A stretch of DNA of 3,047 nucleotides, taken from Escherichia coli (GTDB taxonomy: Bacteria; Pseudomonadota; Gammaproteobacteria; Enterobacterales; Enterobacteriaceae). The notes below the pieces were generated by a model. That model saw only the letters and a list, made by a program, of their open reading frames with translations, had not been told where the DNA came from and did not search any database. Shown here one piece after another: positions 1-1,499 of this stretch; position 1 is the first letter of the stretch, and each line of letters begins with the position of its first letter. Location of the stretch: assembly GCF_003334335.1 (NCBI RefSeq), contig NZ_QOWQ01000085.1, one strand, 5' to 3'. The translations under genes and the position numbers were made by a program.

Positions 1-53
1 TCCATAAATTAACCTTCATTTGATGCTGGATTGAACATATCAAAATCAGGCAA

Positions 54-443
54 TTACACAAATCTATGTACAGGCTCACGGGCAATTTTACGACGGCGTT
101 CACGCCATAACCCCTCTTCTATCATCCACTTTCTGAGAGTTTCAACGGATAAAGATAAACCGTGTATCTCGCGCAATTTTTCGCACGCAAACGTAGGTCC
201 AAAATCAGCGTAACGGCCTTTGAGGAGTGAAATTACTGTTGCTCTGAATTCAGTAGAAAAGGAATTATTAGGACGCTTTCCACGTCGGTGGGAAACCAGA
301 CCAGAAGGCCCTTCATTTCTATACCGTTGCACCAGACGTTTAACCTGCCGAATAGAAATGCCAATGCGTGCCGCAGCTTGTTCCTGAATAATCTGAAGTC
401 GGTGGAGTTCCTTATGACTCATCGTAACAGTCTCTTTGATCAT
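54..443 (-). CDS. N-terminal HTH DNA-binding portion of a transposase/integrase-family protein (129 aa); likely a truncated IS or transposon remnant
   Basis: ORF-track protein MIKETVTMSHKELHRLQ...IGISIRQVKRLVQRYRNEGPSGLVSHRRGKRPNN has a helix-turn-helix signature typical of N-termini of rve/DDE-type transposases. The ORF ends at TAA (54-56) about where a catalytic domain would begin, and the 53 nt beyond it do not continue the protein in any frame. Start ATG 443..441 is preceded by a GGGGGA Shine-Dalgarno-like motif. Confidence 0.55.
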   Translation of the reverse strand: MIKETVTMSHKELHRLQIIQEQAAARIGISIRQVKRLVQRYRNEGPSGLVSHRRGKRPNNSFSTEFRATVISLLKGRYADFGPTFACEKLREIHGLSLSVETLRKWMIEEGLWRERRRKIAREPVHRFV

Positions 444-471
444 GAAAAATCCCCCAGAGAATTGTCTGGGG
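444..471 (-). promoter_or_regulatory. Hairpin plus T-tract immediately 5' of the transposase start; terminator-like and RBS-sequestering
   Basis: Minus-strand RNA reads CCCCAGA-CAAUUC-UCUGGGG (perfect 7-bp stem, plus 452-458 paired with 465-471) followed by GAUUUUUC and then AUG. The Shine-Dalgarno-like G-run lies in the 3' arm of the stem. Confidence 0.4.
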
Positions 472-531
472 ACATTTTAGAATGGTTCAAAGGGGACATT
501 ACAGCTTGGTGTTAACAATAGCCTGCTTCTC

Positions 532-547
532 CGTGCCTTTCGGCACG
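532..547 (-). other. GC-rich hairpin with GAAA tetraloop on the minus-strand transcript
   Basis: Plus CGTGCC-TTTC-GGCACG; minus RNA CGUGCC-GAAA-GGCACG (6-bp stem, GNRA-type loop). No U-tract follows, so it is not a classic intrinsic terminator. Confidence 0.3.
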
Positions 548-592
548 TAAGAGGCTAACCTACATGTGTCTAGCATGAAATTGGCCTCAGAT

Positions 593-627
593 TAATGTTA
601 AGCGTCTTGCAGGACGCGTAATGTTAA
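593..627. repeat. 9-bp direct repeat TAATGTTAA (593-601 and 619-627) flanking a short hairpin (602-618)
   Basis: Read directly: TAATGTTAA, then GCGTCT-TGCAG-GGACGC (stem includes one G-U pair), then TAATGTTAA. Function unknown. Confidence 0.45.
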
Positions 628-640
628 CTGGGGCTTTTCT

Positions 641-676
641 CTATCTGCCGTTGGTGTCCATGCCCGAGGCAGATAG
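641..676. repeat. Perfect 9-bp inverted repeat (CTATCTGCC / GGCAGATAG) with an 18-nt spacer
   Basis: 641-649 CTATCTGCC pairs exactly with 668-676 GGCAGATAG. It lies in ORF-poor DNA downstream of the small membrane protein gene (minus-strand sense). Confidence 0.45.
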
Positions 677-777
677 CCTCAAGCACCCGCAGTCATTCTA
701 CTTAACTAAGATTTCCCCGCAAACCGTTTTTGTCCAGCACAGTAAATATCCAACTAAACCAATGGAGTTCGCTGTAT

Positions 778-957
778 TTACCGCCAGTATTCAATGCACA
801 TGACCGCCATGAACACCCCTAAAAAAAGGGCATTTATATATCCAAATATTAATATCAAAACATCAACTTTTTCCATATACCTTGCTGTGAAGATGATGGG
901 CATACATGATGCGAACAACCAGAACGCAACAAACAAAAACTGCAATGCGTTTTTCAT
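778..957 (-). CDS. Small hydrophobic membrane protein, 59 aa, two predicted transmembrane helices
   Basis: ATG at 957..955 is preceded by AGGAGG with 4-5 nt spacing (minus: GTAGGAGGAATAATG). Protein MKNALQFLFVAFWLFASCMPIIFTARYMEKVDVLILIFGYINALFLGVFMAVMCIEYWR has two ~20-residue hydrophobic stretches separated by the charged loop RYMEKVD. The ORF-track version (778..996) starts at an upstream GTG with no ribosome-binding site; the internal ATG is preferred. Confidence 0.55.
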   Translation of the reverse strand: MKNALQFLFVAFWLFASCMPIIFTARYMEKVDVLILIFGYINALFLGVFMAVMCIEYWR

Positions 958-1211
958 TATTCCTCCTACAATCAATGTGCAATTACATTTAAACACACCT
1001 CAATTTGGCCGGACATATAAATATCTAAACCAGAAAAAATCACTTACATAGCGTTACAAACTCTTTAGTCTAAAGGTTCATCGTAAAACATTCCCCATAC
1101 TTATCAGTCCGTTCCGCGCCAGGTAGCTCATTGCCTTATCTGGCAACCTGTAATCAGGTTTCCGCTTTTTCAGTTGGCTGGTCGTTTAACCGACATAGTT
1201 AATCCATTAAT

Positions 1212-1499
1212 CTAGTTGCCGGATGTTGGTGGATTTTCGCGTTTTAGTTGTTCATAAAAGTGCACAGCTTTAACCAGTTCTTCTGATGTAACTGGGACTG
1301 GTGAGGCAGTGAATAAGGCCTGAATTTGATAGTTCGGCCTGTCGTTACAATCCTCTTTTTTCGGTACATATTTCCAGTCACCAGACCACTACTTCCCCTG
1401 AAAGTCCGTAACGCCTTTTTTCACGTAGCGATATCGCCATGCCACTGGTTTTGCTTGCCCCGCCGTTTCATGCCCTTCCTGATAATTAATCTCGCTCAT
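1212..1499 (-). pseudogene. Small phage-like ORF (95 codons) interrupted by one in-frame TAG at 1391..1389
   Basis: Minus frame: MSEINYQEGHETAGQAKPVAWRYRYVKKGVTDFQGK-TAG-WSGDWKYVPKKEDCNDRPNYQIQALFTASPVPVTSEELVKAVHFYEQLKRENPPTSGN-TAG. Its ATG (1499..1497) overlaps the upstream gene's TGA as ATGA. Coding-like sequence continues in the same frame after the amber codon. Confidence 0.4.

Follow-up and report, generated by a model that had tools for sequence, protein, structure and literature searches.

The window, a stretch of 3,047 nucleotides of E. coli prophage DNA, very probably carries two unrelated neighbours: the front half of a hok/sok locus that was split by a relBE transposon, and a separate gene for a 59-aa membrane protein. 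The module is familiar in kind, though new in this decapitated form, and it lies beside an unannotated family of small proteins. This unannotated DNA, present in about 13% of complete E. coli genomes, is the missing regulatory half of the hokD (relF) locus. A sequence-only reading of the window had pointed to the 59-aa ORF, its AGGAGG site and three hairpins, and all of them were found in their claimed places. It had taken the hairpins for a regulatory 3' UTR of the small gene. They are accounted for differently here.

The window matched hundreds of complete genomes with 99.9% identity. Annotated copies belong to a Qin-like lambdoid prophage adjoining rspB, and the window comes from the 'nin' region of such a prophage, with its genes on the minus strand. 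The minus-strand order is a DUF977 fragment, a methyltransferase, a DUF7167 pseudogene, a second pseudogene, the studied region and an 'ISNCY family transposase' pseudogene. It continues with ydfW, flxA, ydfV, relB, relE, hokD, rem, ydfU and Q. Positions 444-1078 of the window carry no RefSeq annotation at all. The island had been called ORF-poor, which is real; it is explained by the hok leader and promoter (518-734), an intergenic stretch (958-1243) and a frameshifted pseudogene (1244-1499). This pseudogene (1244..1499, minus strand), the upstream neighbour of the 59-aa gene, is a homologue of an 85-aa phage 640R1 protein. It was detected by tblastn as two segments in different frames, and PGAP also calls a pseudogene here. 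At the other end of the window, a DUF977 pseudogene (minus) and a 3'-5' exonuclease pseudogene (plus) lie within 2695-2981 and overlap at 2695-2714. From 2703 onward the window shows 99.6% identity to the ydfE region of K-12. Another prophage rearrangement junction lies here, at about 2695-2714/2703.

An Rfam scan gave one strong match, to RF01794, at 688->517 on the minus strand (104.1 bits against a gathering score of 59, E = 7e-24, full model, model positions 1-157). Intact loci, those of CFT073 and 933W, were on the same level with 106.7 and 113.5 bits. RF01794 is named 'sok antitoxin (CssrC)', yet its 157-nt model is the sense strand of the hok mRNA, from +1 to the hok AUG, so the strand of a match is opposite to that of Sok. 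In CFT073 and 933W the end of the model coincides with the annotated hok start. In the window it falls at the expected position of the hok AUG, which reads AUU. The hok mRNA 5' leader was thus placed at 518..688 on the minus strand.

The structure of the flank is beyond chance, as had been proposed. The 245-nt minus-strand RNA from 688 to 444 gave a folding z of -4.9 against shuffles, and it contains the RF01794 match. The first of the three hairpins is the 5' stem-loop of the leader (687-630, minus strand, with stems 630-649/668-687), and the second (547-534, minus strand) stands immediately before the hok Shine–Dalgarno sequence. The leader stem-loop between them is the target of Sok. When six loci were compared, the base pairs of the leader were maintained despite sequence changes. 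By homology, hairpins 1 and 2 are assigned to the hok mRNA leader. The flank that had been read as the 3' UTR of the 59-aa gene therefore belongs to a hok/sok locus next door, as its 5' leader (RF01794; 93% identity to hokW/sokW of 933W). A type I toxin–antitoxin signature had been suspected and is present, but it had been credited to the wrong gene. Likewise, the statement that Hok was not recognised holds for the 59-aa ORF and fails for the flank, which belongs to a hok locus. The sequence-only reading had also noted that a long ORF across the flanks in related genomes would speak against regulatory RNA. Relatives bear this out in part: there, the flank runs straight into the hok ORF.

In the hok/sok system of plasmid R1, Sok pairs with the leader at the mok start and blocks translation of mok and the coupled hok. 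The pairing also triggers RNase III cleavage. In the window, the sok antisense RNA gene was located at 568..640 on the plus strand, and the sokW annotation of 933W maps to 568-638. The longest hairpin of the region, at 583-636, had been overlooked; its plus strand is the Sok stem. The predicted Sok fold consists of a single-stranded 5' tail, this long hairpin and a U-rich tail (-30.5 kcal/mol, z = -6.1). An antisense RNA had instead been expected over 950-1060. That expectation was unsupported, because the plus strand contained neither an Rfam family nor a promoter-like site between 950 and 1100.

The putative sok promoter (plus strand) has the -35 hexamer GTGCCT at 533-538 and the -10 hexamer TAACCT at 556-561. 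Position 533, adjoining the duplication described below, carries a derived plus-strand T->G that turned the -35 hexamer from TTGCCT to GTGCCT. It also altered the context of the hok Shine–Dalgarno sequence from CAAGGAG to CACGGAG. The change was found only in the main group of transposon-split alleles. Because of the mutated -35 hexamer, Sok output may be weak. The putative hok promoter (TTGCGG, 16-nt spacer, TAGAAT; 695..722, minus strand) was found with our own hexamer scan. It ends seven bases upstream of leader position 1 (688) and is conserved in CFT073, 640R1 and 933W. A strict sigma-70 scan of 400-1500 returned no promoter, that of hok included; a laxer scan recovered the hok promoter.

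The mok' remnant lies at 499..576 on the minus strand; it came from the ORF list, and the mokW annotation start of 933W maps to 576. Its frame begins with a start codon at 576-574, keeps about 19 native codons (576->518), enters the transposon end and stops at 501-499, giving 25 aa. A tblastn search of the window with Mok/Hok of phage 640R1 matched at 561-517 only. No Hok ORF follows the leader directly. AUU and then the transposon end stand in its place, and tblastn with HokD found no Hok in the window. One HokD match on the plus strand (1656-1748; E = 0.002 for the window alone) was dismissed, as a stop codon interrupts its frame. The 3' fold-back (fbi) element, which pairs with the 5' end of the full-length mRNA, is absent from the window, as the 3' portion of the transcript is encoded on the far side of the transposon.

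Inside the hok ATG, at 517/518, the homology to intact hok loci breaks off. At the break the window reads ...GGAGAAGCAGGCTAT|TGTTAACACC..., whereas intact loci read ...GGAGAAGCAGGCTATGAAGCAG.... The 15 bp before the break, GGAGAAGCAGGCTAT (518..532, minus strand), run from the hok Shine–Dalgarno sequence through the 'AT' of the start codon and constitute a target-site duplication. The second copy was found in strain VG48B2 (L001), 3274 bp away, adjoining the ATG of hokD. The hokD ORF of that strain, 3.27 kb further on, is preceded by ...GCGTTGACA|GGAGAAGCAGGCTATG. The right end of the element, TGTCAACGCAAAGCAGAAGTGTCACCTT, begins with TGT, matches the left end as an inverted repeat at 21 of 28 positions and abuts the 15-bp copy on the hokD side. 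The inserted unit is 3274 bp long and contains the transposase, ydfW, flxA, ydfV, relB and relE. The pre-insertion state was also seen: in L017, a near-identical leader is still joined to an intact hok. The split junction was present in 693 of 5426 complete E. coli genomes, and the flanks were 99-100% identical among its carriers. VG48B2, ML35 and ECOR13 are examples of carrier strains.

As to mechanism, a 3.27-kb element of the IS1202 family has very probably inserted between the hok Shine–Dalgarno sequence and the G of the hok ATG and duplicated 15 bp. The toxin ORF is now found on its other side, where it makes up the third gene of relBEF (hokD/relF). What is left in the window is incapable of killing and can yield at most Sok and a short leader transcript. 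The leader transcript would continue into the end of the transposon and probably terminate there, at the third hairpin and its U-run.

The transposon left end occupies 444..517 (minus strand), directly before the transposase ATG, and includes the left terminal inverted repeat TGTTAACACCAAGCTGTAATGTCCCC (517->492, minus strand). The sequence from 517 downward is that of an ISEsa1 left end (IS1202 family). A copy on a Klebsiella plasmid (L090) is identical to it, the third hairpin and the transposase ATG included. This hairpin and its U-run form a terminator-like site (472->451, minus strand). They had been counted as part of the small gene's UTR and proved to be part of a transposon end. The ISEsa1-like (IS1202/ISNCY family) transposase follows at 54..443 (minus strand), where its N-terminal 129 codons were identified with NCBIfam NF033594 (E = 6e-33); the transposase copy of L001 scored 445 bits with the same model. 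The transposase region is 94-98% identical in DNA to plasmid copies of ISEsa1. The element at 54-517 shows the features of the IS1202 family, namely a family transposase, imperfect 5'-TGT...ACA-3' inverted repeats and a target duplication. The 1.6 kb homologous to ISEsa1 were considered as the whole insert and rejected, since their right end has no inverted repeat in L001; the relE-proximal end has one and abuts the duplication. Window positions 1-78 match an IS1414 end (L002; strain HSP425). A deletion of about 1.4 kb next to IS1414 has apparently truncated the transposase gene, at about position 78.

A different use of the orphaned leader and sok was considered. They could be kept as a stand-alone antitoxin for anti-addiction, directed against the hok mRNAs of phages and plasmids that enter or share the cell and have the same Sok target. 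The leader scores as well as intact loci, the configuration is common (693 genomes), the Sok fold is strong, and E. coli genomes carry several hok loci each, with a median of 2 matching places. However, the high score may just reflect a recent insertion, the carrier flanks being 99-100% identical, and the sok -35 hexamer is mutated in the main allele. Moreover, no part of the leader varies more than the region targeted by Sok, so there is no general reason to expect cross-reaction. We therefore think it unlikely that the remnant serves as such an antitoxin, and prefer to read it as a relic of the split locus. Orphan sok genes could still matter for cross-talk among several hok loci in one cell.

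The same element was found elsewhere. An Enterobacter IncFII plasmid carries the same unit, 3301 bp long. Its transposase is intact there, and its RelB, RelE and YdfV proteins are identical. The insertion point is again the same, this time in an R1-type hok/sok locus that belongs to the plasmid, and 15 bp of that locus, GGAGAAGAAGGCCAT, flank the unit. An intact element of 3301 bp is present, for example, in NZ_CP055884.1. Units of 3.27-3.30 kb of the IS1202 family were observed between the Shine–Dalgarno sequence and the ATG of many hok genes (e.g. window 444-532; L001 3152-6455; L091 4520-7834). Left ends were collected from genome, metagenome and viral contigs. They gave 30 distinct flanks, about 22 of which read as hok start regions, in a single orientation throughout. 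The Rfam leader abuts the left end of the element in seven different loci, and duplications of 15-16 bp were present at four sites where both ends were seen. Tandem arrangements were observed at two places. In L139 (~11690-11755), a right end, 15 bp and a left end follow each other. In L124 (~6740-6806), a different element end (...GAACTTACACA) is followed by a similar 15-bp spacer and a left end. Their layout suggests repeated insertion into a regenerated target. A complete copy of 3301 bp was also found at a non-hok site (L150 1345-4645), flanked by the 6-bp direct repeat CGCCTT, so the choice of target is not absolute.

The element appears, from these insertion sites, to target the hok start region by target-specific transposition; spread between hok loci through homologous recombination instead of transposition is the weaker alternative. 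We think it likely that the 3.3-kb IS1202-family transposon ending at 517/518 inserts, with its relBE genes, specifically and in one orientation into the region from Shine–Dalgarno sequence to ATG of hok genes, and that relBEF is its product. If so, the element detaches a type I toxin from its antisense control and joins it to its own type II module, and orphan sok and leader relics, as in the window, are left behind. It would also explain why no target duplication was reported for ISEsa1, since the true right end would lie after relE. The paradigm module relBE appears to have arrived as transposon cargo, which gives the odd relBEF operon a concrete origin. It is a testable case in which the vehicle of one addiction module targets another addiction module. 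A literature search for ISEsa1 together with hok or relBE found no paper linking them.

The 59-aa gene lies at 778..957 on the minus strand, with its ATG at 957-955 and its stop codon at 780-778. Its Shine–Dalgarno sequence, AGGAGG (967-962, minus strand), stands four bases before the ATG. The gene is contained in an AT-rich cassette without assigned strand (735..1164; GC 33-39%), delimited by composition and by the limits of homology. The cassette is common to CFT073-type prophages and absent from 933W. At its edge, a hairpin and terminator scan picked out a plus-strand hairpin (1142..1170) that resembles a terminator and has a T-run, with no obvious plus-strand gene or promoter upstream. Beside this hairpin, 1164-1208 is an insertion or replacement of about 44 bp relative to CFT073.

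Hydropathy analysis and AlphaFold2 agreed with the earlier description of two hydrophobic helices. In the AlphaFold2 model (pLDDT 73.7) the helices span residues 2-24 and 31-58. The protein had no match in Pfam, PHROGs, PADLOC or NCBIfam, and for Pfam, Hok/Gef included, none even at E <= 10. Hok/Gef proteins have a single N-terminal helix and a periplasmic tail with a conserved Cys. A Hok/Gef identity was rejected, given no Pfam match, two helices and a hydropathy profile unlike that of HokD. A Foldseek search of BFVD with the model returned nothing below E = 1.9, helical hairpins being uninformative. A literature search with peptide strings of the protein gave no paper. Close copies of the ORF were found only in prophages of Escherichia and Shigella.

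The ORF had been called an orphan. This stands insofar as the family databases gave no match, but an exhaustive phmmer search revealed a paralogue, also of 59 aa and with 41% identity. The paralogue was present, unannotated, in 1045 of 5426 complete E. coli genomes; the 59-aa ORF itself was present in roughly 1500 complete genomes. In E. coli Nissle 1917 (L089 4001-4281, between ttcA and uspF) the paralogue is unannotated and reads MRKILMYLCISIW.... It is surrounded there by the decayed remains of a prophage, which include fragments of an integrase, of DUF1627 and of a metal permease. A match of the paralogue to TIGR03647 (14.5 bits, below the cut-off of 26) was taken as hydrophobic noise. A profile search with both subfamilies found no third one, and the family is confined to Escherichia and Shigella. 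It has 19 invariant columns. The paralogue does not preserve the antisense 85-aa ORF of the window, which one phage record annotates as 'hornerin'.

These data bear on whether the ORF is merely a chance frame in AT-rich non-coding DNA, in which case the island would hold no protein gene. RefSeq/PGAP leaves the ORF unannotated in L001, L002 and L003, and no family matches it. Within the lineage, five alleles differ by five substitutions, all non-synonymous and none synonymous, which are too few to decide on selection, and many variants in the databases are truncated. Several variants are frameshifted in the T7 run at 826-832 (C-terminus ...FFRGVHGGHVH); this could be phase variation or sequencing error. 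From such variants, the ORF may be dispensable. Against a chance frame, however, the paralogue has equal length, and the alignment is ungapped with start and stop in register. Identity by codon position was 0.58, 0.69 and 0.47 for positions 1, 2 and 3, that is, 2 > 1 > 3. DNA similarity is confined to the 3' half of the ORF and about 20 nt beyond, both copies are preceded by Shine–Dalgarno-like sites, and the paralogue persists in its 1045 genomes. A chance frame is thus improbable in our view, and by its coding pattern the 59-aa ORF is probably a real, uncharacterised small membrane protein gene. With its paralogue it makes up a family of small membrane proteins from E. coli prophages that lacks annotation.

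The gene is not part of hok/sok, because 933W lacks its cassette and no hok leader stands beside the paralogue. Judged by these copies, it is linked to hok only in this phage lineage. As it has a strong ribosome-binding site of its own and the laxer scan found no convincing promoter for it, the gene is probably read in the phage early-right transcript. Its product would be a separate inner-membrane protein with two helices, encoded in an AT-rich accessory cassette. Our best guess, from sequence features, is an oligomerising membrane accessory protein acting in exclusion or membrane modulation. The one basis of this guess is a conserved G39xxxA43xxxG47 face, which suggests helix packing or oligomerisation, together with the polar residues S17, C18 and N42 within the helices.

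The sequence-only reading had favoured a type I toxin, holin-like protein or exclusion effector under the control of the structured 3' UTR or of a plus-strand antisense RNA. The protein is indeed small and very hydrophobic with a strong Shine–Dalgarno sequence, and its glycine-zipper-like face is conserved. The terminator-like hairpin at 1145-1170 (plus strand) could end an upstream antisense or divergent RNA, and the frequent frameshifted variants could mean counter-selection of a toxic product. However, the hok leader and the transposon end fully account for the structured flank, the paralogue has no such flank, and the plus strand at 950-1100 showed no Rfam family or promoter-like site. PADLOC, PHROGs and Pfam gave no match. 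A holin gene would be expected in a lysis cassette, beside an endolysin or spanin, and this gene is not in one; its place is upstream of Q, with genes of the replication region on one side and hok on the other. The characterised E. coli type I toxins that we know of (Hok, Ldr, TisB and Ibs) have one helix each, whereas two are predicted here. We doubt, for these reasons, that the ORF encodes an effector controlled in this way, and retain the reading of two unrelated neighbours. Finding hairpins beside a small hydrophobic ORF is no evidence for control of the ORF by them.

Among known systems, class II holins and pinholin S21 resemble the 59-aa protein only in small size, two helices and a glycine-zipper-like helix face. 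The 59-aa protein differs in showing no sequence or fold match to them and in lying outside the lysis cassette.

For the hok/sok remnant, the closest system is hokW/sokW of 933W/Sp5 (AF125520; PMC8621323), an experimentally shown type I system in which the antitoxin activity of SokW partly needs RNase III and Hfq (PMC8621323). The two share 93% DNA identity over window positions 518-731, an equal position in a lambdoid prophage, the same Rfam family and, by GenBank annotation, the same leader, mok start and sok. They differ in that 933W retains the hok ORF right after the leader, which the window has lost, and that the 933W locus lacks an upstream 59-aa gene.

The counterpart of the remnant is hokD (relF) of the K-12 Qin prophage. 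It represents the second half of the split locus, and its ATG is preceded by the 15-bp copy and the element's right inverted repeat. On the hokD side, K-12 and L001 are 99.97% identical. Unlike L001, K-12 Qin retains neither the body of the transposase nor the leader nor the 59-aa gene; homology to L001 ends after ydfW. The loss extends from just beyond ydfW, taking most of the transposase gene, to about window position 2700. As K-12 lacks this region, the orphaned front half is invisible there. Pedersen and Gerdes are said to have ascribed, in 1999, the inactivation of hokD to a major rearrangement. The chromosomal hokA, hokC and hokE of K-12 are IS-inactivated, with IS150 or IS186 nearby. 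In these loci too, a mobile element disables hok, and the toxin ORF is not destroyed. The difference is that the element here is of the IS1202 family, carries relBE, has landed within the start codon and is found at this same point of many hok loci.

The transposon itself departs from the listing of ISEsa1, which gives 1609 bp without a target duplication (PMC10132070), against the 3.27-3.30-kb unit proposed here. Its behaviour resembles that of the ISAjo2 group, IS1202-family elements with dif/pdif sites as their targets (PMC10132070). Both have the same transposase family, 5'-TGT...ACA-3' ends and orientation-specific insertion beside one defined short site. The ISAjo2 group inserts at dif with a 5-bp duplication, whereas the element here uses the hok region from Shine–Dalgarno sequence to ATG, duplicates 15-16 bp and forms a 3.3-kb unit with toxin–antitoxin cargo.
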